Origin: Cytophagales bacterium
GTDB lineage: Bacteria > Bacteroidota > Bacteroidia > Cytophagales > UBA9547
Reading direction: 5' to 3'
DNA length: 64,000 bases
NCBI GenBank assembly: GCA_033765235.1
Contig: JANRIG010000022.1
Coordinates: forward strand, 133,863 to 197,862
A program made the translations under genes and the position numbers. The notes beneath the pieces were generated by a model. It worked only from the letters and a program-made list of their open reading frames with translations, was not told where the DNA came from and did no database searches. Shown here piece after piece: positions 4,769-23,051 of this stretch (position 1 is the first letter of the stretch; each line of letters opens with the position of its first letter).

Positions 4769-5848
4769 CTACGAAATAAGCCATATTTTCCACAATGCGC
4801 ATACTATCATGAGTACGAAGCAGATAGGGGTAAGGTATTTCCAACTTAAGCTCATGAGCTGGTCTATGCGCACACGTGGAAATGTCCATCGTACCCATAC
4901 CTGCAATAACATGATGAAAAAAGATTTTGAAAAAATCCAAAACACACCCCAAGCATATCCTGATGCAGTGCCTGCCACTCCTGTAGTATATTGGCATAGT
5001 TTTATTGATCCTATGTTTACAGCAGGGCTGTGATAACCTCCAAAAAATAGAAATACAGCCAATATGCTGAAAAGTAGCATTTTGCAATATTCTGAAAGAA
5101 AAAACACGGCAAATCTAAAGCCTGAATACTCTGTATGAAACCCACCGACTAACTCAGATTCTGCCTCAGGTATGTCAAAAGGGGCACGGTTGCAATCGGC
5201 TAAAGCAGCTATAAAATATATGATAAATAGCGGTATAAAAAAAGGTGCTTGCAATATATTCCAGTTCAATATACCCCCATAATCATTTATCTGTAAGCCT
5301 TTTATGCCAAAAAGATAGTTTGGCAATGATGCATACATGCTTTGAGCATTTGCAATGTGATCAAGGTTGAGCGAGCCGTGCCACATCACCGCTACCAATA
5401 CGCACAAACCTATGGGCACTTCATATGATATCACCTGTGCGGCGGTGCGCATGGCACCTATGAGCGCATATTTGCTATTGGAGCTCCAGCCTGCCAGTAA
5501 TATACCTACTACATCCAATGCCAAAATGCCCAATATAAAAAAAATGGCAGATGCTGAATAGGCAGCAGGGTATGACATGGCGAGAGGTACAAAGGCAAAT
5601 GATGCTAATACTGATAAAAATATAATATAAGGTGCCATTTTGAACAATGCTTTATCGGCCTGAAGGGGCACTATATCTTCTTTTTGTAGTAGTTTGAGCA
5701 AGTCTGCCACAGGCTGTAGAGTGCCCCAAATACCTACATGAGTAGGTCCTAATCTGTCTTGCATGAATGAGGCCATTTTGCGCTCAAAATAAAAAATGAC
5801 TAACACGGTAGCAAGCAAAAGAGGCAGAGCAACTACGAATGCTATCAC
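4769..5848 (-). CDS. nuoH: NADH-quinone oxidoreductase subunit H (complex-I type), not inside a nuo operon
   Basis: 359 aa. FERKMASFMQDRLGPTHVG, AGWSSNSKYALIGAMRTAAQVISYEV and PFDIPEAESELVGGFHTEYSG align along the full length with canonical NuoH/ND1. GTG start 4 nt after the upstream lipoprotein gene's stop. Confidence 0.85.
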   Translation of the reverse strand: MIAFVVALPLLLATVLVIFYFERKMASFMQDRLGPTHVGIWGTLQPVADLLKLLQKEDIVPLQADKALFKMAPYIIFLSVLASFAFVPLAMSYPAAYSASAIFFILGILALDVVGILLAGWSSNSKYALIGAMRTAAQVISYEVPIGLCVLVAVMWHGSLNLDHIANAQSMYASLPNYLFGIKGLQINDYGGILNWNILQAPFFIPLFIIYFIAALADCNRAPFDIPEAESELVGGFHTEYSGFRFAVFFLSEYCKMLLFSILAVFLFFGGYHSPAVNIGSIKLCQYTTGVAGTASGYAWGVFWIFSKSFFIMLLQVWVRWTFPRVRIDQLMSLSWKYLTPICFVLMIVCALWKIWLIS

Positions 5849-5852
5849 AGTA

Positions 5853-6608
5853 TCAGTCAGTTAGGTCATCTACGAAATATCTCAGTATGGAGTTGTCCAT
5901 CATTTGCCTGTCTGCCAGTACTTCTTCTATAGGGGTGCGAAAAAAATATTCTACACCTGCAGCATCGGTCAGGTAAAAGGTATATTCCTCTGAGGTAGTG
6001 CCATCGGGTTTGTACAATTTTTCTTTTCTGGCAAATTTCCTGTTTTCAAGGCTGCTTATTGCTGAGTCTAAGCCTTTGTTGCGCAGCTCTTTAAACATTA
6101 CTCTACATATATTTTTATTGTTTCCGGTCTCACTATATTCGGAGGGTATGAATAGGTTTATAGAGTGTACTTTATAGGTCTTTGTACCTGATACTACATC
6201 AAGAAATATGCTGTCATTGAGCTCTACTCCCATAAGTTTGGGGTTGAATAAATCTGCTTCATCTATATTATTGGTATCTGTTACAGCAAGCAGGTTTTGA
6301 CTTAGCATAGATAGGCATATTTGTTTGTATGATAGGGCACGGCCGGTGTCATTAATAGCTCTGATGCTACCTTTTTTTATTTGGTTAAATACACTTTCGG
6401 GAAATTTTTCAAATTCTTCATTTCCTTTCACCACCACCATTTTGCCGGGGTTTAGTGAGTCATTGAAGTCTATCTCATGCACCCTTAAAAACCATGAACC
6501 TCTGAATTTGAGAGGCTTGGCAAGTTTTTTATTTTCAGGAGGGTTGCAACTAAGTATAGTAGCAATAATGGCAATGATGCAAATGCAAGAGGGGATATTC
6601 ATATTCAT
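5853..6608 (-). CDS. Hypothetical lipoprotein
   Basis: N-terminus MNMNIPSCICIIAIIATILSC with a lipobox-like Cys. No family recognised. The track start (6620) is TTG; the ATG at 6608 is preferred. Confidence 0.5.
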   Translation of the reverse strand: MNMNIPSCICIIAIIATILSCNPPENKKLAKPLKFRGSWFLRVHEIDFNDSLNPGKMVVVKGNEEFEKFPESVFNQIKKGSIRAINDTGRALSYKQICLSMLSQNLLAVTDTNNIDEADLFNPKLMGVELNDSIFLDVVSGTKTYKVHSINLFIPSEYSETGNNKNICRVMFKELRNKGLDSAISSLENRKFARKEKLYKPDGTTSEEYTFYLTDAAGVEYFFRTPIEEVLADRQMMDNSILRYFVDDLTD

Positions 6609-6771
6609 ATTCAAATACAAGATACTTATAAATTATTCTGCCAATATAGTATTTTTTTATATATGTAGTATTATCCGCTATTAAGAATAATGTGTTAATG
6701 AAGTTTAGATAAGCGTTTTTTCTTTGTCATGCTCAACAGGGTTTTCATACCATGTTATTTTCAATATCACA

Positions 6772-6803
6772 TTTCAACAATTGTTATCGCTGACTTGTTG
6801 AAA
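6772..6803 (-). terminator. Hairpin downstream of the hydrogenase-like operon (9-bp stem, tttcaacaa/ttgttgaaa)
   Basis: Perfect 9-bp inverted repeat with a 14-nt loop, 30 nt past the stop at 6833. No clear U-tract. Confidence 0.3.
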
Positions 6804-6832
6804 AGCGGCAGTACTTATTAATAGCAAATGAG

Positions 6833-7621
6833 CTACATGCCGGAGAGTAGCTTATTCTTTTTTTTGATGAGATCAAGTACGCCGTTTATGAAGGTGAGAG
6901 GGTGAGGCGGATTGCCGGGTACAAATAAATCTATAGAGTATTTATTGATAAAATCTCTTCTTAGTGCAGCACTTCCTGCAAATATACCTCCGCTTATGGC
7001 ATCTGTACCTGCCAAAATAATGATTTTGGGTGCGGGCACAGCATCAAAGCAAATCTGTAAGGCTTCCTCCATATTGGCTGTGACAGGTCCACTGATGACT
7101 ATACCATCTGCATGGCGCGGCGAGGCCACAAAAGATATGCCGTAGCGGCCCATGTCAAAGTTTACATTGCTGCAAGCATTGAGTTCCCACTCAGTACTGT
7201 TGTCGCCTCCGGCAGATATTTGCCTGAGCCTGAGTGAGTGGCCAAATATTTTTCTTATTTCTTTTCTTACCACATTATCGTCTATTTGTATAGTTGCATT
7301 ATCACTTGCATTTATTATGAGGTTGTTACGGTTATTGGTTGCTATTTTATAATCGTTGGTGAAGTGTATTTTCTTTTCGCCAAGCATGCGTTCACACTCC
7401 TTGCAAAACACACATTTGCCCAAATCTATACTTATGGGTGTGTCTGATATAGCACTTGTAGGGCATAGCTTGGCTACTGCTTTTGCTTCATCGTCAGTTA
7501 TGGTGTTTGATATGACAGGTCTGCCCATGGCATAGGTATCGGGCAGCACCGGTTTGGTGATGTCGGGTATGTATTGCTTACCTTGATGCTTTATGATTTG
7601 GTATGTATCTAAGAAAAACAT
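6833..7621 (-). CDS. NuoB/HycG-like small subunit lacking all four [4Fe-4S] Cys ligands, fused to an N-terminal half-ferredoxin
   Basis: SPRHADGIVISGPVT and the overall NuoB fold motifs are present. The canonical CxxCE, GTCA.SGG and PGCPP motifs read GDNSTEWE, GTDAISGG and PGNPP. The N-terminal extension carries CP-x16-CxxCxxC. Confidence 0.8.
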   Translation of the reverse strand: MFFLDTYQIIKHQGKQYIPDITKPVLPDTYAMGRPVISNTITDDEAKAVAKLCPTSAISDTPISIDLGKCVFCKECERMLGEKKIHFTNDYKIATNNRNNLIINASDNATIQIDDNVVRKEIRKIFGHSLRLRQISAGGDNSTEWELNACSNVNFDMGRYGISFVASPRHADGIVISGPVTANMEEALQICFDAVPAPKIIILAGTDAISGGIFAGSAALRRDFINKYSIDLFVPGNPPHPLTFINGVLDLIKKKNKLLSGM

Positions 7622-7671
7622 GGTTATTCAAATATAAAATATTTCATGGTATAATTATTTATCATTAAGGT

Positions 7672-9195
7672 CTATAAATCATGCCCGCAGTAGCTGAGGT
7701 CAAAGCTTTTGTTGCACACCGGGAAGTCTGATATTTCATTGTTTCTCAATGCTATGGCAAGTGCAATCCAGTTGTTGAAAGAGGCATCTTTTATCTTGTA
7801 TTGTAATATTTCGCCGGTGGTGCCTGTGATTATTGCATGCATGGTTTCGCCACGCCAACTTTCGGTGAGTGATACTACAAGTTTATTCGCAGGCAAGGTG
7901 TAGCCAAATATATTGTCGCGGTATTTGTCAAAATTGTCTGTACTGGCTTCGAGGGCAGAAATTAATGTGTAAATATATTTTATAGAATTTCTTATCTCCA
8001 AGTCTCTTATTTTGCTTCTTGCATAAGTGTCTCCGTCTTCTAATATGGCTTTGTCGGGTTTTGAGGTTAGGTAATATTGGTAGCTGTGTGTGAGGCGTAT
8101 ATCTCTATTTATGTCCATGGTGCGTGCTATCATGCCTGTAGCACCTGTGAGCAAGCCTTGTTCAGTGGTCACTATCCCTGTTTTCTGAAGTCTGTTTAGC
8201 ACATTGGGCTGGCTAAATGTCTTGTCTGATATTTCCACATATTTTTTTTCAAATACTTGAAGCACATTTTTGAGGTTGCTGAGTAGTGCAGTAGTAAGTG
8301 GATATGGCTCATAACCTACTCTGAGCAAGCCTTTGGCAAATCTGTTGCCGCACCATGATTGAATGTAGTTGATAATGGGTGTACGCAGTGCACCAAATAC
8401 TGCACTACCCAATTGGTATGCAATATCAGTACATATACCACTAAGGTCGCCCACATGTACTGCTATGCGCTCCAGCTCTGAGGCTATGGTGCGTGAGATT
8501 TGTATTCTATTAGTAGGTATATATCCTATTATACTTTCTACAGCCATGATGTGCGCCAAGGCATGTGCCACTACCGCATCGCCTGCTACAGACTCTGCAA
8601 GTATCATGCGCTGGAGTGGGTGCAGCTTATCTATGAATAGACTTTCTACCCCTCTGTGTTGGTATCCGAGTTGTATTTCCAGATGTTTCACATTTTCGCC
8701 AACGCATACAAATCTAAAATGCCCCGGCTCAATGACGCCTGCATGTATAGGTCCTACACCTACCTCGTGTACTTCATCGCCGGATATGGTAAAAAACGGG
8801 TAGTTGAAAATTTCATGAAGTTTATTTTTTCTGTTATGAGGGTATCTTACAGGTTTGAGCCACGGATGATCAATGAAATCTATGCCATAGTTTTCACAAA
8901 TTTCGCGCTCATACATAGCAATAGACGGAATATCAGGCACCAATGAATGTATAGCCTTAAAAAATTGTAAATACAACTCATGAGCTGTTACATATAGTAG
9001 ACAGGTCTTGTCATGAGCTATGATGATGATAAACCTGAGCACCCCTTGGTGCTTGTAGGCATGATAGGATATGATGTGGGCTTGAGTATCTTTTAAAAGT
9101 ACAATAACAGTATCACAAAAATCTTCATATCTAAGCACAGGCACATCATGTATATCTACCGGCTCTGCATTGGATATTTGAATATATTTTTTCAT
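7672..9195 (-). CDS. Fused NuoC/NuoD (HycE/HyfG-like) large subunit lacking the [NiFe] Cys ligands
   Basis: VGPIHAGVIEPGHFRF and LGYQHRGVE motifs. The L1 position reads ESVAGDAVVAH (Cys to Ala twice). The C-terminal L2 position reads DLSYCGHDL instead of D[PL]CxxCx[DE][RL]. The ATG at 9195 gives an ATGA overlap with the upstream gene; the track's 9276 start would overlap it by 85 nt. Confidence 0.8.
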   Translation of the reverse strand: MKKYIQISNAEPVDIHDVPVLRYEDFCDTVIVLLKDTQAHIISYHAYKHQGVLRFIIIIAHDKTCLLYVTAHELYLQFFKAIHSLVPDIPSIAMYEREICENYGIDFIDHPWLKPVRYPHNRKNKLHEIFNYPFFTISGDEVHEVGVGPIHAGVIEPGHFRFVCVGENVKHLEIQLGYQHRGVESLFIDKLHPLQRMILAESVAGDAVVAHALAHIMAVESIIGYIPTNRIQISRTIASELERIAVHVGDLSGICTDIAYQLGSAVFGALRTPIINYIQSWCGNRFAKGLLRVGYEPYPLTTALLSNLKNVLQVFEKKYVEISDKTFSQPNVLNRLQKTGIVTTEQGLLTGATGMIARTMDINRDIRLTHSYQYYLTSKPDKAILEDGDTYARSKIRDLEIRNSIKYIYTLISALEASTDNFDKYRDNIFGYTLPANKLVVSLTESWRGETMHAIITGTTGEILQYKIKDASFNNWIALAIALRNNEISDFPVCNKSFDLSYCGHDL

Positions 9196-10625
9196 TTGGG
9201 CAAGTGTGCTACAGACATTTTGATATATTCTACAAGTTCTATGTTTGGATGCAATCCTACCCAAAATACTATGCAAAGCAATATGTATTGTGTAATTGAC
9301 TCATAAGGCTTTATAATTTCAAATACAGGAATATTGCTACGCAGAGGTGCGAATAATATATGAAAAAAATCTTTGGATAATAATGCAAATATATAGACAA
9401 GTAATACAATAATACCCACAGGCACAACCCAATGCCATGAAATAAAAAGTGACTTTAAGGTATAATACTCAGTCAAAAACAGCACTGACGGCGGTATGCC
9501 GAGTATTGATACAAAACCTAAAAAAAGTACTAATGCGCCGGCAGGGTTTAGTTTAAAGTAAGCCCCTGTAAAGTCTAAGTTTTTGGTCAAATACACCCTG
9601 TAAAGCTGCCCAATTTGAAAAAATATGGCAGATTTGATGAGCGAATGAAATACCAGATGCAATACTGCTACAAAATACCCGGCGTGTCCGCAGGAAAGTG
9701 CAATGATAGCTATGGCAGCGTGCTCTACACTTGAGTAGGCTAATAGTCTTTTGAAGTTCTTTATTTTGAAAAGATATATAACCACAAAAATAAGCGAAGC
9801 TATACCTATGATAATGAGTATTTTATCCATCCATGGCTTGATAGATGTGAATACAAAAGATTCATAAAATCTGAATATGGATACAAAGCCCACATTCATA
9901 AGCCCGCCTGAAAGCATAGCACCTACGGGCGATGGGGCTATGTCTTTGGCATCTATATCTACTGTGAAAAGTGGTACCACACCCAACTTCACACTAATGC
10001 CAATGATGGCAAACAAAAAGCAAGACTTCAACCACATAGGGCTCATATGAGGGGTGGTTTTTTGCAATTCGGTAATATATAAGCCGGTCTCATTGGTCTC
10101 TTGTGCGGCTATCCCTAACAGTAATATACCTGCGTAGGCAAGTGCCAGCCCTATGGAGCTCACAAAAAAGTATTTCCATGCAGCCTCGAGTGAGTGCGAA
10201 TTGCGGTCGTGGTATATGAGGATGGATGCCACTATGGTAGTGGCTTCGAGAAAGCACCATAGCAAACCCAAGTGCTCTGATATCAATACCCCCGTCATAG
10301 ATGCCACTAGCCCAACCATGGAGGCATTGTGTATGGCAATAATTCTTTTTTTTGACCTGCGGTTAATTGAATAAAGTGCAGTATGTATTACGGTAGGTAC
10401 TATCAATATAGATATTACGGTCATAAATATCAACCCTACCTTGTCAAACCTCAGATATTGACCTATTAATGTGCCTTCGTGTATGAAACACTGATAGTTG
10501 AAGTACCAATGTAACAGTACAAACGGCACATACAAAAGATAGCCTGCCAAAGTATGCCTCACAAACACCATGACACACATAATGATGAATGAAAGTACAA
10601 AATAAATGATGACTATTTCTAACAT
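9192..10625 (-). CDS. NuoN/HyfF-like antiporter-type membrane subunit
   Basis: 477 aa with about 14 TM helices and a Proton_antipo_M-like core (APSPVGAMLSGGLMNVGFVSIFRF). TAATG overlap with the upstream gene. Confidence 0.7.
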   Translation of the reverse strand: MLEIVIIYFVLSFIIMCVMVFVRHTLAGYLLYVPFVLLHWYFNYQCFIHEGTLIGQYLRFDKVGLIFMTVISILIVPTVIHTALYSINRRSKKRIIAIHNASMVGLVASMTGVLISEHLGLLWCFLEATTIVASILIYHDRNSHSLEAAWKYFFVSSIGLALAYAGILLLGIAAQETNETGLYITELQKTTPHMSPMWLKSCFLFAIIGISVKLGVVPLFTVDIDAKDIAPSPVGAMLSGGLMNVGFVSIFRFYESFVFTSIKPWMDKILIIIGIASLIFVVIYLFKIKNFKRLLAYSSVEHAAIAIIALSCGHAGYFVAVLHLVFHSLIKSAIFFQIGQLYRVYLTKNLDFTGAYFKLNPAGALVLFLGFVSILGIPPSVLFLTEYYTLKSLFISWHWVVPVGIIVLLVYIFALLSKDFFHILFAPLRSNIPVFEIIKPYESITQYILLCIVFWVGLHPNIELVEYIKMSVAHLPK

Positions 10626-11290
10626 TAATCTTTAAGTTCGGTAAGGTTACGTATCTCTATGGCTTTGAATATGCCTTTGGCACGGTTGAGGAATACTCCT
10701 AATAGAAATACGGTGGTGAGTATGTCAAATAATATTCCCATATTGATGATGATGGGGAGCTCTGTGCCCATGGCAAGCGATAGCATAAAGAGTCCGTTTT
10801 CAAGTACAAGATAGCCAACTATATGAGTAATGATTTTTTTGCGCCTCATAATTATGAGCAACCCTGTGAGAATGGAAGATAACGATGCTGTGAAATATAT
10901 AATTTCATGGGTATGTTGCTGAAGCCTGTATGCATTGCCGGTTTCAAAATTTATATGAAGTTCGTAGCCAAAAAAGAAGGAGATTATGAAAATAATGGCA
11001 ATCTTAAAAAGTGAATAAAAGTTGAGCTGGTCGGGCTCGCGCTCATAGAATATGTTATTTTTTTTCATCAAATAATATAAGTAATACGGTACTATAATGC
11101 CTTTGAAAATCAAGGTTTCTAATAAAATAAATGTAAGATTGATAAGGTGCATCTCTTTGAGCTCTGACAGTACTATGGCAAAGAGTAATATGCCTTGTAT
11201 GGCAAGTGAATATATGTATGAAAGTACCCTGCCGGCATTGATGAGGTATATAAGTGTCATGCAATATAATATGATAAAGAGGTTTGTCAT
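10625..11290 (-). CDS. HyfE-like small membrane subunit
   Basis: 221 aa polytopic membrane protein. It sits in the position, and has the size, of HyfE between the HyfC-like and HyfF-like genes. Confidence 0.5.
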   Translation of the reverse strand: MTNLFIILYCMTLIYLINAGRVLSYIYSLAIQGILLFAIVLSELKEMHLINLTFILLETLIFKGIIVPYYLYYLMKKNNIFYEREPDQLNFYSLFKIAIIFIISFFFGYELHINFETGNAYRLQQHTHEIIYFTASLSSILTGLLIIMRRKKIITHIVGYLVLENGLFMLSLAMGTELPIIINMGILFDILTTVFLLGVFLNRAKGIFKAIEIRNLTELKD

Positions 11291-11293
11291 GGT

Positions 11294-12202
11294 CTACAAT
11301 TTATTCATTATCAATACAATACCAAAAAATAATATGAGAGCTAAAACAGTGAGGATAAAGATAAAATTAGGATTTTTTTTCATACGCTCTCGCGCTCTAA
11401 AACTCTCTGCCATACCTACTGTGACTGCCAGTGCAAACTGCAATCCAAAAAATAAAAGGAGCTCTTGCACAATATTCATACCCGAATGGAGCAAAAAATT
11501 GCACATAAGCAACCCAAACATAGCAAACTTGAGCGACACTGAATAGGTCAAAATTGCCATATCAAAAGCAGAGTTGTCAAGTATCATCACCTCATGTATC
11601 ATGGTGAGCTCAAGGTGTGTATTTGGGTCATCTAAGGGCAGCCTGCTGTTTTCTATCATCATGATTTGAAAAAGCAGAAAAAATGCCAAAATAAGCAAAA
11701 ATATAGAGGTAGAATCACTGTAATTGATAAAATCGTTGAACATATCAGCAAATGAGGTAGTGCCTGTGTACATGGCAAAAGAGCCCATGAGCAAAAAAAA
11801 CGCTGGCTCTGCCAGCAGTGCATATAATGCCTCGCGATTGGCTCCCATGCCTTCAAAGGGACTGCCTGTGTCCATAGCTGCAATAATCATGAAAAACCTG
11901 CCCACTGCCAACATATATGCGAAAAATACAAAATCTCCGTCAAACGATATCACCGCCTGCTGGTCGTGAAAGGGCAGTACCAATAGTGCACATACTATGC
12001 TGCTGAAGTATATACTCGGTGCTATTTTGAATACGAAACCGGTGGTGGTGCTATATATGGTTTGTTTTCTTAACAGCCTCACTATATCATACATATGCTG
12101 CAATAATCCGGGTCCTTTGCGCCCCGATGCTATGGCTTTTGTACGATTGACTACCCCTAAAAAAAATATAGATGCTACCACCACTGCTATGATGCCTATC
12201 AT
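11294..12202 (-). CDS. HyfC/HycD-like (NuoH-family) membrane subunit
   Basis: 302 aa polytopic protein. Gene order and size match HycD/HyfC. ATGA overlap with the upstream gene. Confidence 0.65.
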   Translation of the reverse strand: MIGIIAVVVASIFFLGVVNRTKAIASGRKGPGLLQHMYDIVRLLRKQTIYSTTTGFVFKIAPSIYFSSIVCALLVLPFHDQQAVISFDGDFVFFAYMLAVGRFFMIIAAMDTGSPFEGMGANREALYALLAEPAFFLLMGSFAMYTGTTSFADMFNDFINYSDSTSIFLLILAFFLLFQIMMIENSRLPLDDPNTHLELTMIHEVMILDNSAFDMAILTYSVSLKFAMFGLLMCNFLLHSGMNIVQELLLFFGLQFALAVTVGMAESFRARERMKKNPNFIFILTVLALILFFGIVLIMNKL

Positions 12203-14166
12203 ATAAGTTGCAAATAAGTGATGAGAAATAAACCTATAATAAATGCAAATGCATACAATATATAAGTCTGCGTGCGCCCTGTCTGAAATACAGCAAATCT
12301 TTTAATAAATTTGGTAAGGGCTATGGCAGGCATAGTTACAAATTTTACCTCCAATACGTCTTTGATATTGGTCACGTATGATGATTTGGCAGGATAAATG
12401 TCAGTATTATGTATTTGTTTTTCTCTGTTTTTGGAGTAAATAATAATAGATGCCAGCTCACGCAAATTTTGGGTGAATGAGGTAGAGGTATATTGTAATT
12501 TGCTGGTAGGTGCTGTGTAGCCACAACCCCAGGTAGGCCCATACTTTGCTGTGTTATGTTTTTCTACATATGTTTTCAATAAATAAATTGCTATAGTAAT
12601 GATAATGAATAGAATAGACACTATACTTATATGATTCATCATAGATATGGTATTGGTCTGTACATATATATTTTTTATTCCAAAGGTCATAATCACAGGA
12701 TTGAGCATATTTATTAACAAAAATGGAAACAAAGATATGCATAGTATAATGATACAAATAAGAGCTTGAGGCACAAGCATCCATGTGTCAGCCTCATTTT
12801 TGGCTATGTGCTCACTACTTCTGCTGCTTCCCAAAAATGTGATACCATACATTTTGCTAAAGCAAAATAATGACAAACCTCCGGTAAATGAGAGGCATAC
12901 CAAGCCTATCACCAAAAGTTCATCTATAGAAACATCGCCTTTTTTGAACTCGCCCATGATGGCATCGTAAATAATGTATTCGGAGATGAAGCCGTTGAAC
13001 GGGGGCAAACCGCTGATAGCTACACAACCTGTAAGAAAAAAGATTGCAGTAACAGGCATATTTTTGGCAATGCCACCGAGTAGGTTCATATTTTTGGTAC
13101 CTGTAGCATGATATACAGCACCTGCACCATAAAATAGAAGAGGCTTGTACAAAGCATGGTTGAGTATATGCATGATGGCTGCCGCAAAACCCAGATAGCT
13201 CAGTGCTTCATTGTTCACAGCCTTGCCCAGTACACCCAACCCCAATGCCAAACCAATGATGCCCATATTTTCTATGCTACTGTAGGCAATGGTTTTTTTT
13301 AGCTCATTTTGCATGCACGCGTGGATGATGCCATAAATAGATGAGAATGCACCTACTACCAGCATTATAATGCCATAGGCTTGAAAGTCATACTGCAGCA
13401 TAGAAATGAGGCGAATGATGCCATAAATACCCATTTTGCTCATAGCACCCGAAAAGAGGGCTGAGGCATGTGCAGGTGCTACATTGTACACATGCGGCAG
13501 CCATGTGTGCAACGGGATAAACCCTGCTTTGAATGCAAAGCCGATAAAAAATATTAAGAATATCAAGCTGTCTTTTCCTGATGCCAAAAATTGTGCAAGC
13601 CCTCCAAAATCTGCCTCATAACCATTGATTTGCAGCATGATAGTGCCGCCTGTAAGAAATATAATGCATATGTGCATCTGCACAAAATAGTAGAGTGCAG
13701 CCTTCATCACATCTTTTTGGTCGTTTTCAAACATCATTACCAAAAATGAAGCCAATGTCATGATTTCCCAAAATATCAAAAATGGAATAAGGTTTTGTAC
13801 CATTGCCACCAATAGCATGAATATTTGCAAAAGGTTGAATGAAATAAGGTGCAGGTTGAGTGGGTGAGGGTCTGTCTCATATTTAAGATAGCCTTGTAAA
13901 TAAATGGAGGAAAACAAAGAAATGGTATTAATGATAATAATATAAAATACAGCCAACCCATCTACGCAAAAGGAGAGCTCACCAATGAGTGGTATCATAG
14001 TGGAATAGCTATAAAATGTACCCTTTGTCAAATACAGATATACTATAATACCTGAGGCTATATTCACTGCTATATTCATGAGCAATGCATACATACATTT
14101 GTACTTGACAGGCACAAATACAATGAGCGGTATTAAAAATAAAGTAAAGATGTAGTTCCAAGACAT
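12199..14166 (-). CDS. HyfB/NuoL-like antiporter-type membrane subunit
   Basis: ~655 aa with a Proton_antipo_M core (HTWLPHVYNVAPAHASALFSGAMSKMGIYGIIRL). The track start (14184) is TTG; the ATG at 14166 (MSWNYIF..) is preferred. Confidence 0.8.
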   Translation of the reverse strand: MSWNYIFTLFLIPLIVFVPVKYKCMYALLMNIAVNIASGIIVYLYLTKGTFYSYSTMIPLIGELSFCVDGLAVFYIIIINTISLFSSIYLQGYLKYETDPHPLNLHLISFNLLQIFMLLVAMVQNLIPFLIFWEIMTLASFLVMMFENDQKDVMKAALYYFVQMHICIIFLTGGTIMLQINGYEADFGGLAQFLASGKDSLIFLIFFIGFAFKAGFIPLHTWLPHVYNVAPAHASALFSGAMSKMGIYGIIRLISMLQYDFQAYGIIMLVVGAFSSIYGIIHACMQNELKKTIAYSSIENMGIIGLALGLGVLGKAVNNEALSYLGFAAAIMHILNHALYKPLLFYGAGAVYHATGTKNMNLLGGIAKNMPVTAIFFLTGCVAISGLPPFNGFISEYIIYDAIMGEFKKGDVSIDELLVIGLVCLSFTGGLSLFCFSKMYGITFLGSSRSSEHIAKNEADTWMLVPQALICIIILCISLFPFLLINMLNPVIMTFGIKNIYVQTNTISMMNHISIVSILFIIITIAIYLLKTYVEKHNTAKYGPTWGCGYTAPTSKLQYTSTSFTQNLRELASIIIYSKNREKQIHNTDIYPAKSSYVTNIKDVLEVKFVTMPAIALTKFIKRFAVFQTGRTQTYILYAFAFIIGLFLITYLQLI

Positions 14167-14360
14167 GTTGTACAAACTTAACAATTATTTAACAATCGCA
14201 AAAAAAAAATGATGAGCCATGATAGTATTGTACATAATACTTACTACAGCCACGTAAGATTTTAATAACATGGGCAAATAATTTATGAAAAGTGATATTT
14301 ATTAAAAAATTTGGAAGTAAAATTAAAATTATTTACATCTATTGAGGGCTGCATACGTAT

Positions 14361-14391
14361 GTTACACTATCCATAGAAATGATAGTGTAAC
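14361..14391 (-). terminator. trxA terminator-like hairpin (perfect 11-bp stem, 9-nt loop)
   Basis: gttacactatc-catagaaat-gatagtgtaac, 37 nt downstream of the trxA stop. Separates trxA from the hydrogenase-like operon. Confidence 0.5.
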
Positions 14392-14427
14392 TGTATGTAA
14401 ACTTTGAATTGTAATAAGTATTTGCAT

Positions 14428-14760
14428 TTATGCAAGCACGCTTTCGAGCTTTTTGCTGAGAGCAGACTTGGCCACTGCGCCTATTTGCTTATCTACTACT
14501 TGTCCGTTTTTGAAAAACAACAAAGTAGGTATGCTGCGTATGCCAAATTTTGCGGCCGAGTTGGGGTTAAAATCTACATTTACTTTGCCTACTATGGCTT
14601 TGCCTTCATACTCACCTGCAAGTTCTTCTACGGCAGGTCCTATCATTTTACACGGTCCGCACCACTCAGCCCAAAAGTCTACAAGGACAGGCTTGCCTGA
14701 GTTGATGATGTTTTCAAAATTGGTATCGTTTATCTCTACTGCTTTATGGGTGGTAGTCAT
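14428..14760 (-). CDS. trxA: Thioredoxin
   Basis: 110 aa with WAEWCGPCK active site. Confidence 0.95.
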   Translation of the reverse strand: MTTTHKAVEINDTNFENIINSGKPVLVDFWAEWCGPCKMIGPAVEELAGEYEGKAIVGKVNVDFNPNSAAKFGIRSIPTLLFFKNGQVVDKQIGAVAKSALSKKLESVLA

Positions 14761-14844
14761 GATTATTTCCTATTTAAAATTAATATTAAAATTTATTTAT
14801 TATTCAAACAAAGGTATTTTTTTATAAGTTCAAGATATCAACAA

Positions 14845-15210
14845 TTATTCCACGCCTGATTTGTACAGTGTTATTTTAGCTTTGTGGCATATACCACCTA
14901 CGGGCGGATTGTGCTTTGCCACAGTCACAGTAGCATCAATGATAGCATCAAAGTTTGTAAATATAGCGTTGAGTATTCTATATCCTAAGTTTTCGAGTAG
15001 TTTTGAGGGGATATCTACTTCTTTTTTAACTATTTTATATAACTTTTCATAATTTATAGTGCCTGACAATTCGTCAGTAATGGGTGAATCTTGCAAGTCT
15101 GCATGGATAATGAGGTCTATTTCATACTTATTGCCAATCACTCTCTCTTCGCTGTAAAAGCCGTGATATGCAAAAAATTCTAACCCTTGCAATGATATGG
15201 TGCCTGTCAT
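14845..15210 (-). CDS. folB: Dihydroneopterin aldolase
   Basis: 121 aa. The start, ISLQGLEFFAYHGFYSEERVIGNKYEIDL, is typical of FolB. Its ATG overlaps the upstream stop (ATGA). Confidence 0.85.
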   Translation of the reverse strand: MTGTISLQGLEFFAYHGFYSEERVIGNKYEIDLIIHADLQDSPITDELSGTINYEKLYKIVKKEVDIPSKLLENLGYRILNAIFTNFDAIIDATVTVAKHNPPVGGICHKAKITLYKSGVE

Positions 15211-15836
15211 ATTTTGTCAAAAAATGATATTTCTGGCACGTTTTGCGCTTCGGAAATTGATTTTTTAGCTTCCGTTTTTTCGAGATTTTTTGAAGGTGTA
15301 GTGGGCTTATTATCTATTCTGCTGATGCGTTCTTGGAGGTCTCTTTGTATATTTTTAAGTTCTAATATGAGGTTTTCTTTGATGTTTTCTATCTCTTTCA
15401 CTTCTCTTTCGGCATGTCGCATCATGTCTTTGGAGGTTTCTTCGCTTATTTTGAGCTGTTGCTCAGCTTTTTCTATGGTGTCTTTGGCCTGGTATTTGGC
15501 CTCATTGAGCAGCGCATCGGCGTTCATTTGGGCTTCTTTTAGCAATAGTTCCGCAGTTTTGTTGGCTTGCTCTACCAAGTGAGAACCTGTGTCTTCGGCC
15601 GTTTTCAGCGTTTTGTACAGCGATGTTTCTACATCTCTGAGTTTTTGTACTTCTTTATCAAGCAGCTCTATCTTCATTTTCTGCTCTCTATTCTCTTCCA
15701 GCAGCTTTTCCCACTCTTGTGATACGGATATCAGATATGCTTCTACTTCTTCCTTTTCATACCCTCTAAAAGTTTTTTCAAAGGTTTTTTGTCTTATTTC
15801 CAAGGGGGTAATCCTCATTCCGCTTTTCTTTACCAT
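15207..15836 (-). CDS. DivIVA-domain coiled-coil protein
   Basis: MRITPLEIRQKTFEKTFRGYEKEEVEAYL is the DivIVA N-terminal signature, followed by a long coiled coil. The real start is probably M20 (15836) or M26 (15818) of the track ORF. Confidence 0.75.
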   Translation of the reverse strand: MVKKSGMRITPLEIRQKTFEKTFRGYEKEEVEAYLISVSQEWEKLLEENREQKMKIELLDKEVQKLRDVETSLYKTLKTAEDTGSHLVEQANKTAELLLKEAQMNADALLNEAKYQAKDTIEKAEQQLKISEETSKDMMRHAEREVKEIENIKENLILELKNIQRDLQERISRIDNKPTTPSKNLEKTEAKKSISEAQNVPEISFFDKI

Positions 15837-15941: not shown

Positions 15942-17498
15942 ATGACTAGACAAAATATATTGTGGGCAGACGACGAGATAGAATTATTGAAACCTCATAT
16001 CCTATTTTTGAGCAACAAGGGGTACGACATCACAGCCGTGCAAAGCGGGGCAGATGCGTTGGACAAGTGCCATACTGCACCCTATGATATTGTATTTTTG
16101 GATGAAAATATGCCGGGCATGTCGGGTCTTGAAACACTCACCCAAATAAAACTGCTTAAACCCAACCTCCCTGTCATAATGATCACCAAGTCTGAAGAAG
16201 AGCGAATCATGGAAGATGCCATAGGCAGCAAAATAGCTGACTATCTCATAAAACCACTGAACCCCAACCAAATACTGCTGTCTGTAAAAAAAATATTGGA
16301 CAACAAACGCTTGATATCCGAAAAAACTACTTTGGCTTACCAGCAAGAGTTTAGAAACCTGAGCATGGCATACAATGAGCCTCTTAACCATGAGCAATGG
16401 GCAGAAATTTATAAAAAATTGGTGTATTGGGAAATAGAAATAGACCAATCGCAAAACAAAGAGGTGCTCGAAATGCTGGAAATGCAAAAACACGAAGCCA
16501 ATGCCAACTTTATCAAATACATTATCAAAAATTATGAAAAATGGCTCAATGATGTGCAGGTGAGCAAACCTACCCTATCGCACCAGATTATGAAAAAAAT
16601 GGTGTTTCCTCATATCAATGCTGACACTACTACATTTTTTATACTTATAGACAACCTCAGGTATGACCAGTGGCGGTGCATAGCCCCTGAGGTGCAAGAC
16701 ATGTTTGATATCATAGACGAAAGCTCGTACTATGCCATACTGCCTACCACTACCGAGTTTGCACGCAATGCCATATTCTCAGGACTCATGCCCTCTGATA
16801 TGGAAAAATATCATCCCAATCTGTGGATAAATGAAGATAACGAAGAAAAACGCAATGCCAACGAAGACAAATTTCTTGAAGCACAGCTCAAACGCCATAA
16901 AATAGATACCAAATATTCATACCACAAAATATTGAATGCCACGCAAGGCAAAGCCTTGAACGACAACCTTAATAACCTCATGGGCAATGGCATCAATGCG
17001 GTGGTGTACAACTTTGTAGATATGCTCTCGCATGCCCGTACAGATAGCCATATGATTAAAGAACTTGCACCTGATGAGGCTGCATACAGAAGCATTACCT
17101 TATCGTGGTTTTTGCACTCACCGTTGCACGACTTACTCAAGTTTTTGTCTGAGAAAAAGGTAAAAACCATCATCACTACAGACCATGGTACCATAAAGGT
17201 AAAAAATCCTGTAAAAATAATAGGCGACCGCGAAACCAATACCAACCTAAGATACAAAGAAGGCAAAAATCTTTCGTTTGAAGAAAAAGGCACCTTTCAT
17301 ACCCGCAAGCCCGAGCGGCTGATGCTGCCCAAGCACAACCTCACCTCAAGCTATGTATTTGCGCTCAACCAAGACTTTTTTGCATATCCCAATAACTATA
17401 ATTATTACGTAAGCTATTACAAAGACACCTTTCAGCATGGAGGAGTATCCTTAGAAGAGATGATAGTACCGCTCATCACCATGGTGGGCAAAGGGTGA
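15942..17498 (+). CDS. porX: T9SS response regulator PorX (receiver domain + PglZ/alkaline-phosphatase-like domain)
   Basis: 518 aa. ILWADDEIELLKPHILFLSNKGYD..VFLDENMPGMSGLE receiver domain, then a PglZ-type C-terminal domain. Size and motifs match PorX. Confidence 0.85.
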   Translation: MTRQNILWADDEIELLKPHILFLSNKGYDITAVQSGADALDKCHTAPYDIVFLDENMPGMSGLETLTQIKLLKPNLPVIMITKSEEERIMEDAIGSKIADYLIKPLNPNQILLSVKKILDNKRLISEKTTLAYQQEFRNLSMAYNEPLNHEQWAEIYKKLVYWEIEIDQSQNKEVLEMLEMQKHEANANFIKYIIKNYEKWLNDVQVSKPTLSHQIMKKMVFPHINADTTTFFILIDNLRYDQWRCIAPEVQDMFDIIDESSYYAILPTTTEFARNAIFSGLMPSDMEKYHPNLWINEDNEEKRNANEDKFLEAQLKRHKIDTKYSYHKILNATQGKALNDNLNNLMGNGINAVVYNFVDMLSHARTDSHMIKELAPDEAAYRSITLSWFLHSPLHDLLKFLSEKKVKTIITTDHGTIKVKNPVKIIGDRETNTNLRYKEGKNLSFEEKGTFHTRKPERLMLPKHNLTSSYVFALNQDFFAYPNNYNYYVSYYKDTFQHGGVSLEEMIVPLITMVGKG

Positions 17499-20061: not shown

Positions 20062-20910
20062 ATGAGACACTATTATATAGCATGGTGCATAATTATTGGG
20101 TTGATTATTTACAATATAAGATGCAAACCTACTGAAGATGCTGTACCTATTGTTCCTATGAATAATAATACAAGTATAGTAGGAGTAAATACAGTAATAG
20201 GTGCAAGTACAATAACAGGCTCACATACTACATGTGGCAATGCTACAATAACAGGTACAAATTCAGTACTTGGTACAGTATTTAATATAATTACGATAAT
20301 TGGCAATGTACCCGGCAACCATACAATACTGGGGCTTAATACCTTAACAGGGGAAACAACGATATTAGGTATTGTAACAACAGCTGACACTAGCACATCT
20401 GTTATTATTAAACCAAGCTGTACCTATACAGGTGATTATTTTGTAAACCGCCTTACTACAAACCAAATAGACTTGCCCATACGTAAATCCATAGTAATAT
20501 TGCCTGAACACTTACGAGTAGAATTCAAAGCATTACTTTGGGACACACGATGTCTTGACCCGAATTTGCCAAAAGTAGTATGTGAACCTTGGCCTCCCGA
20601 GGTATTGGTAAAGTATGAAATAAGCGATGCCCAATGCAATACTTATGAAACATATATGTCTAAATACGATTTTTATTTAAATATACTAATTTTATCCTAT
20701 CCATTACCAAAATCTCAAAATGTGTACAGTACCTTAACCTTTACAGGATTTAATATTGAATACCAAAATATACTACCTAAAAAAGTGATAGATACTACAG
20801 TCTATCCATTTTATGATGTTGATAATATAACAATAGTAAGGATTGATACATTCTTTATTCCCATTGTAAAGGATACAAATAGTTATACGCTAAAACTTAA
20901 GTTAAACTAA
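20062..20910 (+). CDS. Secreted/lipoprotein-like protein with a hexapeptide ([LIVT]-G-x4) repeat tract
   Basis: Gly recurs every 6 residues across IVGVNTVIGASTITGSHTTCGNATITGTNSVLGT. Hydrophobic N-terminus. Its stop overlaps the next gene's ATG (TAATG). Confidence 0.55.
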   Translation: MRHYYIAWCIIIGLIIYNIRCKPTEDAVPIVPMNNNTSIVGVNTVIGASTITGSHTTCGNATITGTNSVLGTVFNIITIIGNVPGNHTILGLNTLTGETTILGIVTTADTSTSVIIKPSCTYTGDYFVNRLTTNQIDLPIRKSIVILPEHLRVEFKALLWDTRCLDPNLPKVVCEPWPPEVLVKYEISDAQCNTYETYMSKYDFYLNILILSYPLPKSQNVYSTLTFTGFNIEYQNILPKKVIDTTVYPFYDVDNITIVRIDTFFIPIVKDTNSYTLKLKLN

Positions 20911-23051
20911 TGCTTAGAAGACATATATTGACAATATACTTTTTACTAAATTTTAGTTTTTGCATCGGTCAATTTTTTTTTACTGATTCTATTGATTATA
21001 TCCTAAAACCAAGCTTTTATAACAAATATTTAGAAATAAAAGATAGTTTATTTATTACCCCCGATGAATTTATTTCTAACTACTCAAGCAAAATTATTGG
21101 TAACAGCAAAAGTAAACTATTATATGTTCGTACTAAAACGGACCCATCAGGGAATATCCACAAAACTTACCAACAATATTATAACAATTATCCCATAAAT
21201 GACGGATATGTAATATTGCATTGCATCAATAGTTATGTTAATAAAGTAACGGGCAGTTTATACTATAATTTTACAGCAAGCAGCAATATGACACATACAA
21301 TAAAACCTAAAAATTTAATAAAAAATATGGTTCCCAAAAATATAATGAAAGACAAAAGGACTTCCATAGAATATAAATGTAAATATATAGATTGTGATAC
21401 TACACCTTTCAAAAAAGAAATGATATTAAGCCATGAGATAACCGTTTATAGTGATACAAATAACTATGACTATACATTCTATTTTTTTGCATCAAATGAT
21501 AAATATTTGTTTAAAAACAAAAACACAAAATATTGTGCGCCAAATTATTATACACCTACTTCTGATGAGACAGTAGAAAATTGTGCAAACATAAATTTTT
21601 ACAATACAGACAAACAATTTTTCGCAGATTATGAAGTAAGTAAGGCTGCTTATTTGTCAAAAATTAAAGGTAATAGACCTATGTTAAACGATTTCAACCG
21701 TACAATATATAACAATATAAATGTTGTAAATGGAGGTCAATTTATTACTTCACCAACTTTATTTCAGTGGAACAGTCCTGTTCAACGTGGTGCGGCTACC
21801 TATCTATGGGCAGCAGAATTTTTTTATGATTATGCATATGACAACTATGGTTTTAGTACTGTTGATAACAAAGATGGAAACATATCAATAGTACTTAATA
21901 GTTCTGTATCTGCTGGAATACTTGCTTCTTATAGTAATAAAGTAGTCAACATTGTTGGGGTCAATGTTATTAGACCTGCTGTTTTATGGCACGAGTTAGG
22001 TCATTCCATAGCAGACCAAATTTGGGGAAATGGTACTGTCGTCATAGGAGAATATCCCTTTTTCGAAGGTATTGCTGATATTACTAGCATGGTAATACAA
22101 TATGCATATACAGGAGGTAATGTACTATGGGAATCTGTTTATAATCCATCATGGTCAGTTAACGCAACTATAGGAGATGTAGATTGGAATAATCCACATA
22201 GGAATGAAGATGCACAAAAACGTATAATTACTCATTGGTTTTATATAATGTGCAACGGGCAAACTGGTTTTAATACATTAGGATATCCTTATAATGTGTC
22301 AGGCATAGGCATAAATAAGGCAGACAAAATATTATTCCATGCTATGGAATATTACAGCTATCAAGGCATTAGTTTAAAAGATGCATTAGTAAACTGCTTA
22401 TTATCAGCAGCAGACTTATATGGCAATTGCTCAAATGAGTATATACAAACATCAAATGCAATAGAAGCTGTAGGTATAAGAAATGGAACAACAAATTGGG
22501 GAAGTGATTACAATTTATGTTTGGATATAAACTCTTCAATTTCATCACAATTTATATTTGCTACCGGGGTCTTTACTTTATCAAATAATTGCAGCACTAT
22601 TGTGAGAAATAATTCAACTTTAATTGCTAATTCTTCTACAAAAGTGGTTCTTAAACCTGGTTTTAAAGCAGAAAGGGGGTCTTTTTTCCATGCAGGTATT
22701 ACACAATGTTATAATCCTACTGTTTCTAAAACACCTCCAATTTACAATTCATCAAGAAAAGAATACATCGAAACTTCACATTTAAACAAAATAGTTGCTA
22801 AAAAATATATCCCTGATGTATTTCCTAATCCATTCGAAAATACTTTTAACATAGATTATAACCCCGATAGCATATCTAATAATTCAAATTTTTATAGAAT
22901 AATTGATATAAACTCAAAAACTATAAAAGAGGGTGCCTTTAATGTAGGCAGCAATCAGGTTGATATGTCGTCTGTAGGTACTGGGTTGTATTATTTACAA
23001 TTATATTTATCTGGCACCTACAGCAAAACTTTCAAAATTGTCAGGAAATAA
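20910..23051 (+). CDS. Thermolysin-like (clan MA(E), M4/M36-like) zinc metalloprotease with T9SS type-A C-terminal sorting domain
   Basis: HELGH zinc motif with a downstream FFEGIADI (third-ligand Glu region), about 20 residues later. C-terminal ..VFPNPFENTFNIDY...GLYYLQLYLSGTYSKTFKIVRK sorting domain. Signal peptide. Confidence 0.75.
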   Translation: MLRRHILTIYFLLNFSFCIGQFFFTDSIDYILKPSFYNKYLEIKDSLFITPDEFISNYSSKIIGNSKSKLLYVRTKTDPSGNIHKTYQQYYNNYPINDGYVILHCINSYVNKVTGSLYYNFTASSNMTHTIKPKNLIKNMVPKNIMKDKRTSIEYKCKYIDCDTTPFKKEMILSHEITVYSDTNNYDYTFYFFASNDKYLFKNKNTKYCAPNYYTPTSDETVENCANINFYNTDKQFFADYEVSKAAYLSKIKGNRPMLNDFNRTIYNNINVVNGGQFITSPTLFQWNSPVQRGAATYLWAAEFFYDYAYDNYGFSTVDNKDGNISIVLNSSVSAGILASYSNKVVNIVGVNVIRPAVLWHELGHSIADQIWGNGTVVIGEYPFFEGIADITSMVIQYAYTGGNVLWESVYNPSWSVNATIGDVDWNNPHRNEDAQKRIITHWFYIMCNGQTGFNTLGYPYNVSGIGINKADKILFHAMEYYSYQGISLKDALVNCLLSAADLYGNCSNEYIQTSNAIEAVGIRNGTTNWGSDYNLCLDINSSISSQFIFATGVFTLSNNCSTIVRNNSTLIANSSTKVVLKPGFKAERGSFFHAGITQCYNPTVSKTPPIYNSSRKEYIETSHLNKIVAKKYIPDVFPNPFENTFNIDYNPDSISNNSNFYRIIDINSKTIKEGAFNVGSNQVDMSSVGTGLYYLQLYLSGTYSKTFKIVRK

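Follow-up and report, generated by a model that had tools for sequence, protein, structure and literature searches.

Complexes of the energy-converting hydrogenase-related (Ehr) type were first named 'Ech-hydrogenase-related' for the genes GSU0739-0745 of Geobacter sulfurreducens (EhrA-1, A-2, B, C, D, L and S) and received their present name later; they lack the ligands of the Ni-Fe cofactor, and a partnership with formate dehydrogenase has been proposed for them in some candidate phyla (PMC7894505, PMC13194489, PMC6349859, PMC10284858, PMC7304191, PMC4758237). They are described as related to Ech or energy-converting hydrogenases and of unknown function (PMC7894505, PMC6349859, PMC10284858). 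In Geobacter, all Ehr subunits have been detected as protein and were more abundant on formate (PMC7894505); the complex has also been taken to be a relic or non-functional, and missense mutations piled up in the ehr genes during long-term culture (PMC13194489). Here, we analyse an ehr operon in a 64-kb stretch of the Cytophagales bacterium contig JANRIG010000022.1 (the window; all coordinates are window positions) and compare it to related loci from many phyla. Ehr complexes, reportedly known from genomes since 2005 and 2013, appear in many genome surveys with their function unsolved, and how chemistry is coupled to ion movement at the arm junction of complex I and its relatives is a long-standing question. 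We find that a large conserved clade of Bacteroidota, to which the window locus belongs, has dropped the proximal iron-sulfur cluster with little else changed. This clade is a natural experiment on whether the coupling machinery can do without an electron wire.

Identity of the operon

Six tightly packed open reading frames (ORFs), all intact and all on the minus strand, occupy positions 6833-14184. In the direction of transcription they encode the following products.

12199-14184, minus strand: EhrA, HyfB/NuoL-type antiporter-like subunit, 661 amino acids (aa); NCBIfam 'hydrogenase 4 subunit B', 458 bits, below the cut-off
11294-12202, minus strand: EhrB, NuoH/HyfC/HycD-type membrane anchor, 302 aa; Pfam NADHdh, 105 bits
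10625-11290, minus strand: EhrC, HyfE-like small membrane subunit, 221 aa; NCBIfam 'hydrogenase 4 membrane subunit', E=7.8e-15
9192-10625, minus strand: EhrD, HyfF/NuoN-M-type antiporter-like subunit, 477 aa; NCBIfam 'hydrogenase 4 subunit F', 184 bits
7672-9195, minus strand: EhrL, fused NuoC+NuoD/HycE-like large subunit, 507 aa; match to HycE by sequence and fold
6833-7621, minus strand: EhrS, small subunit in which a HycF/NuoI-like ferredoxin domain is fused to a NuoB/HycG-like domain, 262 aa; NCBIfam NuoB and NuoI

The Pfam and NCBIfam matches agree with the gene order proposed in an initial annotation of this DNA (HyfB/NuoL, HyfC/NuoH, HyfE, HyfF/NuoN, NuoCD/HycE, NuoB/HycG). For all six products the NCBIfam scores lie below the curated cut-offs, mostly by far, and thus the operon proteins are divergent members of their superfamilies; no Pfam score falls below its cut-off.

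Homologues of EhrL at about 50% identity number in the thousands in Bacteroidota and include Niastella vici and Ancylomarina. A scan for the family pattern, with one genome per species, matched at least 600 species, and 80 loci were kept from it for the comparison of neighbourhoods and family members. These loci span Bacteroidota, Spirochaetota, Melainabacteria, Ignavibacteriota, Desulfobacterota, Geobacteraceae, Planctomycetota, Verrucomicrobiota, Gemmatimonadota, Omnitrophota and others. Almost all complete loci share the six-gene order (HyfB-, HyfC-, HyfE-, HyfF-like, large, small), and a minority are truncated or rearranged. Often, a second HyfB-like gene precedes the operon in relatives. 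The Geobacter type of Ehr, represented by Geomonas limicola (L054) and a metagenome-assembled genome (MAG) of Geobacter (L078), has the same subunit set and order as the window, the same fusion of HycF- and HycG-like parts in EhrS and a large subunit from the same clade. Motifs without the ligand cysteines, ES[IV]AGD[TS]xxGH and FNLSY[CSA]G[HFN]DL, occur in all loci and all phyla. In a neighbour-joining tree of the large subunit, a rough distance method used here without support values, the window protein falls inside a monophyletic Ehr clade together with Geobacteraceae, Melainabacteria and Spirochaetota; HycE/HyfG form the sister group and NuoCD the outgroup.

When compared to group 4a [NiFe] hydrogenases (Hyf/Hyc), the locus lacks the cysteines of the L1 and L2 motifs and all four cysteines of the proximal cluster. 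The initial annotation had assigned it to Ehr, and the clade, gene order and Cys-less motifs shared with Geobacter, Geomonas and the loci from other phyla bear this out. We are highly confident that it encodes a Bacteroidota-type Ehr complex, EhrA-B-C-D-L-S, that descends from Hyf/Hyc-type group-4 [NiFe] hydrogenases. The locus is one of thousands in a Bacteroidota-wide subfamily of the known Ehr family and not a singular oddity. The practical value of this assignment is modest: metabolic reconstructions of Bacteroidota should list ehr genes neither under hydrogenases nor under NADH dehydrogenases.

Some loci depart from the common layout. L005 and L056 have a rearranged order that begins with the large subunit. 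An EhrL homologue stands without other ehr genes in the fetched flanks of a Cytophagales MAG (L036, 9980-11500), where a peroxiredoxin gene lies in front of it, and of a Prevotellaceae MAG (L029, 6405-7907).

Metal sites of the hydrophilic arm

The metal sites of the ancestral hydrogenase map to four segments of EhrL and EhrS.

8563-8595, minus strand: former L1 motif of EhrL, ESVAGDAVVAH, residues 201-211; cysteines replaced by A204 and A207, with the Ehr-specific invariant D206 between them
7675-7704, minus strand: former L2 motif of EhrL, FDLSYCGHDL, residues 498-507; cysteines replaced by S501 and G504
7394-7465, minus strand: retained [4Fe-4S] ligand set of EhrS, C53(P)...C70-x2-C73-x2-C76; last cysteine of ferredoxin motif 1 and first three of motif 2
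6911-7204, minus strand: former proximal (N2/G1-equivalent) site of EhrS; D140 (7202-7204), T143 (7193-7195), D207 (7001-7003) and N237 (6911-6913)

The closest solved relative of EhrL is E. coli HycE (7Z0S_E, phmmer E=1.8e-32), which is also the top structural match (template modelling score 0.83) of an AlphaFold2 model with a predicted local distance difference test (pLDDT) value of 83.8. In the phmmer alignment, SVAGDAVVAH stands opposite RVCGICGFAH and DLSYCGHDL opposite DPCYSCTDR. All four cysteines of the Ni-Fe site are thus gone from EhrL, as the initial annotation had claimed from the two motifs, and the register is the same in a family alignment with HycE, HyfG and NuoCD. The hand alignment behind that claim was in register, since alignments to HycE, MbhJ, HyfI and HycG give the same columns. 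C503 lies one position ahead of the last ligand and is not a ligand itself; it is a cysteine in most of the family and otherwise serine or alanine. EhrL ends in GHDL, and the C-terminal extension that is associated with maturation is absent. The quinone ligands of complex I are missing as well: Y273 and H224 of NuoCD correspond to G205 and I155 of EhrL, and both columns are invariant in the family. From these residues, the complex is predicted to be unable to bind the Ni-Fe cofactor and to make or split H2, and it is likewise predicted to be unable to bind quinone in the manner of complex I. A reading as quinone reductase was rejected on the absence of both quinone ligands.

Other parts of EhrL have been kept. 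H151 of the beta1-beta2 loop and the proton-donating E156 are present in all 78 family members, and the path that carries substrate protons in the hydrogenase (R448, H247, E400, R358) is invariant; the roles of these residues, and of those in the canopy and the ND3-like loop, are taken from the structure of formate hydrogenlyase (FHL; PMC9474812). The canopy aspartate is Asn in most Ehr members and Asp in the window protein. Across phyla, 90 positions of EhrL are at least 95% conserved. Among these, 23 are Ehr-specific; they lie around the former active site and include many polar residues (D206, D470, E173, E201, H143, K467, K496, N276, N495, Q179).

In EhrS, residues 1-110 align end to end with HycF/HyfH/NuoI, from residue 1 and across both ferredoxin motifs. 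NCBIfam matches residues 62-105 to NuoI and residues 145-254 to NuoB, and the AlphaFold2 model (pLDDT 86) has MbhJ and HycG as its best Foldseek matches. The small subunit had been said to lack all four ligands of the proximal (N2-equivalent) cluster, and this was seen when EhrS was aligned with MbhJ (6CFW_J) and with HyfI and HycG of E. coli, where the cysteine columns read D140, T143, D207 and N237. In the ferredoxin domain, the distal cluster has lost its ligands to T42, A46 and V49 (the first three positions of motif 1) and L80 (the last of motif 2). The cysteines C53, C70, C73 and C76 remain and are shared by 56 of the 58 genome-derived family members and by all of the 120 closest database homologues, our sample for ligand counts. 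In ferredoxins with two [4Fe-4S] clusters, each cluster is bound by three cysteines of one motif and the last cysteine of the other. By this rule, the four cysteines form a complete ligand set for one cluster, which we take to be the N6b/F2 equivalent and neighbour of the proximal cluster, following the assignment in Thermus Nqo9. A broader search with EhrS against 50%-identity representatives yielded 99 proteins at E<=1e-30, many of them fragments, so that the ligand tally was noisy and little was gained.

Two claims of the initial annotation therefore stand in part. Every metal-site cysteine had been described as replaced, which applies to the Ni-Fe site and the proximal cluster and not to the ferredoxin domain with its four retained cysteines. 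The electron path had been described as broken altogether. Because the proximal cluster has no ligands, the wire from the ferredoxin domain to the membrane interface is interrupted; one [4Fe-4S] site survives, however, and as it persists under strong selection the complex is not metal-free. Judged by the ligands present, the surviving cluster should be unable to pass electrons by wire to the junction.

The loss of the proximal cluster is not special to the window. Whereas the window protein has a single ligand set and a proximal site that reads D-T-D-N, EhrS of the Geobacter type and of most other phyla keeps the distal, middle and proximal sets; Melainabacteria lack the distal one. The proximal ligands read D-x-D-N throughout a monophyletic Bacteroidota clade, and a basal Bacteroidota MAG (L017) keeps all three clusters. 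Among the 120 homologues, D140 is found in 118, D207 in 119 and N237 in 116. Position 143 varies (C in 63, A in 22, T in 20, others in the rest), and the distal cluster is kept in 25. Since three of the four residues are fixed while the fourth drifts, D140, D207 and N237 are under selection and position 143 is not. Furthermore, the three fixed non-Cys replacements exclude a Cys-ligated proximal cluster. When the D-x-D-N subfamily is compared to the subfamily with four cysteines, these three ligands account for nearly all positions of the hydrophilic arm that are fixed differently. EhrS is the most conserved subunit in both subfamilies, and its cluster-less NuoB-like domain, which is better conserved than any other part of the complex, has a mean pairwise identity of 73% within the Bacteroidota clade. 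Pseudogenisation was rejected because of this high conservation, which is highest in the small subunit.

These alignments indicate that loss of the proximal cluster has become fixed in a large clade of Bacteroidota. They further suggest that Asp-x-Asp-Asn forms a new fixed site, predicted to be polar or cation-binding, in which the two carboxylates would match the net charge of the oxidised [Fe4S4(Cys)4]2- centre. As the clade lost the proximal cluster and kept nearly all else, it can be argued that the conserved core function of Ehr needs no electrons at the junction. In the literature, we found nothing on the cluster-less Bacteroidota variant or on any Ehr phenotype beyond Geobacter proteomics and genome surveys, although an earlier mention is not excluded. 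Cultivable hosts of the variant exist, for instance Niastella and Ancylomarina.

The membrane arm and its possible drive

The membrane subunits retain the residues expected of an ion-translocating machine. In EhrA, the charged residues of the antiporter chain are invariant in 59-60 of 60 family members: Glu of transmembrane helix 5 (TM5; E140), Lys of TM7 (K219), H339/H343/K347 and Glu of TM12 (E402). EhrD has an invariant TM5 Glu and TM7 Lys (E127 and K213, 38/38) and a nearly invariant TM12 Glu (E386, 37/38). The motif TWGCGY of the ND3-like loop in EhrA contains a cysteine found in 60/60 members. EhrB carries invariant residues of the E-channel and the TM5-6 loop (R123, E132, D191, E198, E204, D209, K225, E266, R271), and in addition Ehr-specific invariants in the TM5-6 loop (E117, D192, H196, H203); in EhrC, E164 and D189 are invariant (68/68). 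All four coupling loops at the arm junction are conserved (beta1-beta2, ND1-, ND3- and NDUFS7-type). Conservation of this kind indicates strong purifying selection on the putative ion-translocation chain, on the coupling loops and on the proton path.

How does this set compare to described systems? E. coli hydrogenase-4 and FHL (HyfB-C-E-F-G-H-I; HycC-D-E-F-G; 7Z0S) provide the closest solved structures for both hydrophilic subunits, and their membrane subunits are homologous to those of the window. Shared with them are the Glu of the beta1-beta2 loop, the proton path, the loops of the ND1, ND3 and NDUFS7 types and a NuoC+D fusion; the window complex lacks the Ni-Fe ligands, the proximal cluster, the C-terminal maturation extension, HyfA/HycB, HyfD, HyfJ and formate dehydrogenase. 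Its HycF-like part has one cluster only and is fused to the small subunit. With complex I (NuoB, C, D, H, I, L, M, N), the window complex shares the logic of an L-shaped module, the Glu/Lys chain of the antiporter-like subunits and the E-channel residues of NuoH; it differs in that the quinone Tyr/His, the N2 cluster, NuoA, NuoJ and a separate NuoK are absent from the operon, and NCBIfam scores for Nuo families stay below cut-off. The sulfane reductase of Pyrococcus (MBS/Mbx, 6U8Y) likewise derives from a hydrogenase that lost its Ni-Fe chemistry, and it still pumps ions. The catalytic site of MBS is its proximal [4Fe-4S] cluster, which cannot form in the window complex, and an MBS-like reading was rejected for the absence of this cluster.

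The Mrp (Mnh/Sha) cation/H+ antiporter runs without redox input. Its MrpA/MrpD-type subunits share the conserved TM5 Glu, TM7 Lys and TM12 Lys/Glu with EhrA and EhrD (E140/K219/E402 and E127/K213/E386). Mrp consists of seven subunits, MrpA-G, with neither a hydrophilic arm nor a NuoH-like subunit, whereas the window has NuoH-, NuoCD- and NuoB-like subunits and no MrpB/E/F/G-like genes. The redox-free operation of Mrp serves as the working analogy for the mechanism that we prefer.

With somewhat less than even confidence, and from the pattern of lost and kept residues, we favour the reading that the complex is a redox-independent translocator of ions or protons. The Bacteroidota Ehr probably moves ions without a continuous electron path. 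Under this proposal, a cation or proton would bind and be released, or a protonation state would change, in the polar pocket that replaces the Ni-Fe site and the proximal cluster. Its lining would consist of the Ser, Thr, Gly and Ala residues that took the place of the ligands, together with D206, E201, E156 and the triad D140/D207/N237. Conserved loops could relay these events to the NuoH-like channel and to the two antiporter-like subunits, so that a gradient, and not electron flow, would drive the complex as a secondary device, with cation/H+ exchange as in Mrp or some related gated flux. As for the [4Fe-4S] cluster that survives, it may hold the ferredoxin-like domain together, or it may report the redox or oxygen state to gate activity. 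Consistent with a redox-free machine, the 80 neighbourhoods show no conserved gene for a redox partner, and the window has none. The initial annotation had suggested an ion-translocating or conformationally driven machine, which fits all of the findings. It had further suggested that this machine uses something other than H2/H+ chemistry; with E156, R448, H247, E400 and R358 invariant, this is an overstatement for H+. More tentatively still, Bacteroidota Ehr might be the first member of the superfamily of complex I and membrane-bound hydrogenases with a complete and strongly conserved hydrophilic arm and all coupling loops and no electron wire. A fixed Asp-Asp-Asn site stands in for the proximal cluster and a polar pocket lined by Ser, Thr and Gly for the Ni-Fe site, and ion binding or a proton-coupled reaction without redox chemistry in this pocket would drive the antiporter modules or be driven by them. 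If true, it would be a natural 'redox-free complex I' in which conformational coupling is isolated from electron transfer.

Several observations weigh against a redox-independent translocator. The four cysteines of the remaining cluster are invariant, both ferredoxin-type clusters are kept in a part of the close homologues (25/120) and other phyla keep all three clusters, which speaks for a continuing role of electron handling in the family. Should the forms with three clusters be redox pumps, the near-identical rest of the machine could mean that the Bacteroidota form is still redox-driven in an unforeseen way. The operon has none of the subunits MrpB, E, F and G, which have been linked to Na+ handling in Mrp. 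In addition, the links to SulP transporters and EIIA proteins described below concern a minority of loci and are absent from the window.

The observations on the clusters favour a redox-driven ion pump with a shortened wire, in which a ferredoxin or flavodoxin would reduce the surviving cluster, and the electron would pass to a nearby bound acceptor or to a non-cysteinyl metal at D140/D207/N237 and drive the membrane arm as in membrane-bound hydrogenase (MBH), MBS and complex I. Such a pump would explain why the four cysteines are retained in 120/120 close homologues, and why D, D and N are conserved as functional ligands would be; the coupling loops and the proton path persist as they do in relatives driven by redox chemistry, and the higher abundance of Geobacter Ehr on formate (PMC7894505) fits as well. 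We nevertheless consider it unlikely. The window protein also lacks the surface-side (distal) cluster and has Thr at the sole proximal position where relatives keep Cys. Without the proximal cluster, the distance from the N6b-equivalent cluster to the pocket would be two cluster spacings, probably too long for efficient transfer; in the relay of FHL, the spacing of clusters is below 14 A (PMC9474812). The neighbourhood offers no conserved partner gene, and the family is present in aerobes such as Niastella. To our knowledge, Asp/Asp/Asn is not among the ligand sets of Fe-S clusters. A different possibility is that the complex is a gradient-driven enzyme without redox chemistry. By analogy to the vectorial CO2 hydration of cyanobacterial NDH-1MS/CupA and of DabAB, the pocket of the old Ni-Fe site, to which gas channels from the ancestor and the proton path would give access, might catalyse a reaction that releases or consumes protons, such as CO2 hydration, which would be made vectorial by removal of protons through the membrane arm. 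The 23 Ehr-specific invariants, among them D206, D470, E173, H143, K467, K496, N276 and N495, look like a rebuilt pocket rather than decay, and the proton path is kept. Moreover, SulP transporters, a family that includes the bicarbonate carrier BicA, adjoin the operon in several phyla, and in a Desulfocapsa locus (L055) a beta-carbonic anhydrase gene lies directly downstream. However, this idea rests on analogy, and we regard it as improbable. In DAB and NDH-1MS, a zinc subunit of the DabA or CupA type sits on an antiporter-like subunit; with Pfam and NCBIfam, no recognisable zinc or carbonic-anhydrase motif and no DabA or CupA homologue was found in the operon and the flanking window ORFs. 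The SulP neighbours score at least as well as dicarboxylate carriers of the DauA type as they do as BicA, and neither the SulP nor the carbonic-anhydrase link occurs in the window or in most loci.

A relic peripheral arm, or a whole operon that is decaying or non-functional as assumed for Geobacter (PMC13194489), would account for the loss of all catalytic metals of the ancestor and for the missense mutations in long-term culture reported in the same study. We consider this very improbable: the six ORFs are intact and translationally coupled, the family is kept in at least 600 species, the 90 conserved positions of EhrL hold across phyla with EhrS even more conserved as a subunit, and the replacement residues D140, D207 and N237 are themselves fixed. 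All subunits have, moreover, been seen as protein in Geobacter (PMC7894505).

Operon junctions and genomic neighbourhood

The overlaps and the 3-nucleotide (nt) gap listed in the initial annotation were all found on direct reading of the junctions. ATGA overlaps lie at 12199-12202 and 9192-9195, a TAATG overlap at 10625 joins ehrD and ehrC, and the gap at 11291-11293 is part of TAG-ACC-ATG (11290-11296). A spacer of 50 nt separates ehrL from the last gene, ehrS. EhrA starts with TTG, and an alternative ATG start lies 18 nt downstream (14164-14166). For ehrL, the ORF caller extended the gene to a TTG at 9276; an exact match to the protein is annotated in a Cytophagales MAG (P0001), and the public annotation of the identical protein places the start at 9195.

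Upstream of the operon lies a thioredoxin gene, followed by an inverted repeat.

14185-14427, minus strand: upstream intergenic region with a perfect 11-bp inverted repeat, GTTACACTATC...GATAGTGTAAC, at about 14362-14392, directly after the thioredoxin gene

The repeat is probably the terminator of the thioredoxin gene. As this hairpin separates the thioredoxin gene from ehrA, the ehr operon probably has its own promoter. A scan for sigma-70 promoters and terminators, ill-suited to Bacteroidota, gave counts no different from those in shuffled sequence. A riboswitch or leader RNA as a clue to function was rejected: Rfam gave no credible match in window positions 6000-15500 at E<=1, where a single sub-threshold hit with E=0.66 is due to chance, and only tRNAs at seven related loci.

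Genes that would point to a partner are missing from the neighbourhood. The absence of hyp, formate dehydrogenase and nickel-transport genes from the 64 kb, stated in the initial annotation, was confirmed for domains in window ORFs of at least 150 aa. Furthermore, no conserved dehydrogenase, ferredoxin, hyp or Ni gene was found among the clustered flanking ORFs of the 80 loci, in which only an HTH-EIIA gene, SulP and two-component regulators recur. The window's own neighbours, namely thioredoxin, FolB, DivIVA, PBP2, the lone NuoH and a 255-aa lipoprotein, are not conserved beside ehr in the other loci.

The HTH-EIIA gene encodes a protein of about 225 aa with an HTH_17 (excisionase-type) domain and a PTS-EIIA(2)/PtsN-like domain. 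In 24 loci it is the first gene of the operon and precedes or overlaps ehrA. These loci all lie outside the D-x-D-N clade (L032, L038, L039, L047, L048, L051, L054, L057, L060, L061, L064, L066, L067, L071, L076, L079 and others), and the gene is absent from the window and the other D-x-D-N loci. It suggests control of the operon of the PTS-Ntr type. The window thus differs from many relatives by having no HTH-EIIA gene in front and a single copy of EhrA where they have two.

Seven of the 80 loci (L005, L009, L020, L047, L048, L066, L067) have a gene for a SulP anion transporter at a distance of up to 1.1 kb from the operon, on the same strand in six of them; L087, which was fetched separately, is a further case. 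The arrangement is SulP-EIIA-ehr in Ignavibacteria, Omnitrophota and Verrucomicrobia, and ehr-SulP in two loci of the Bacteroidota clade (L005, L020). This placement is non-random, as no SulP gene occurs elsewhere in the flanks (p of about 2e-4 for six independent cases). With respect to substrates, NCBIfam does not separate carriers of the DauA, sulfate and BicA types. The SulP proteins of L005 and L087 are a long form of 745-771 aa with a C-terminal extension. The beta-carbonic anhydrase gene of the Desulfocapsa MAG (L055, 6940-7530, plus strand) starts 227 nt downstream of ehrS and is the sole case in the 80 loci.

Downstream of the operon, the window contains a gene for a putative lipoprotein of 255 aa (5853-6620, minus strand), with a faint GldN-like match, that is coupled to a stand-alone nuoH. 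This nuoH (4769-5848, minus strand, 359 aa) is the second gene downstream of ehrS, lies 4 nt from the lipoprotein gene with translational coupling and looks canonical (Pfam NADHdh, 362 bits; NCBIfam NuoH, 299 bits against a cut-off of 305). No further nuo genes were found in the 64 kb. The pairing of lipoprotein and nuoH beside ehr was not seen in the 80 related loci, nor is the 255-aa ORF related to the one that comes after ehrS in Niastella.

Further away, a single ORF of 7537 aa (30750-53363, plus strand) contains FG-GAP and TIG/IPT repeats, a laminin-G domain and a C-terminal sorting domain of the type IX secretion system (T9SS), which identifies the product as a giant secreted or surface protein. 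Other T9SS and gliding genes are scattered around the locus on the plus strand, encoding a PorX response regulator (15942-17498, 816 bits), GldD (932-1522) and an M4 peptidase with a T9SS tail (20910-23051). Their presence fits the Cytophagales origin of the sequence.

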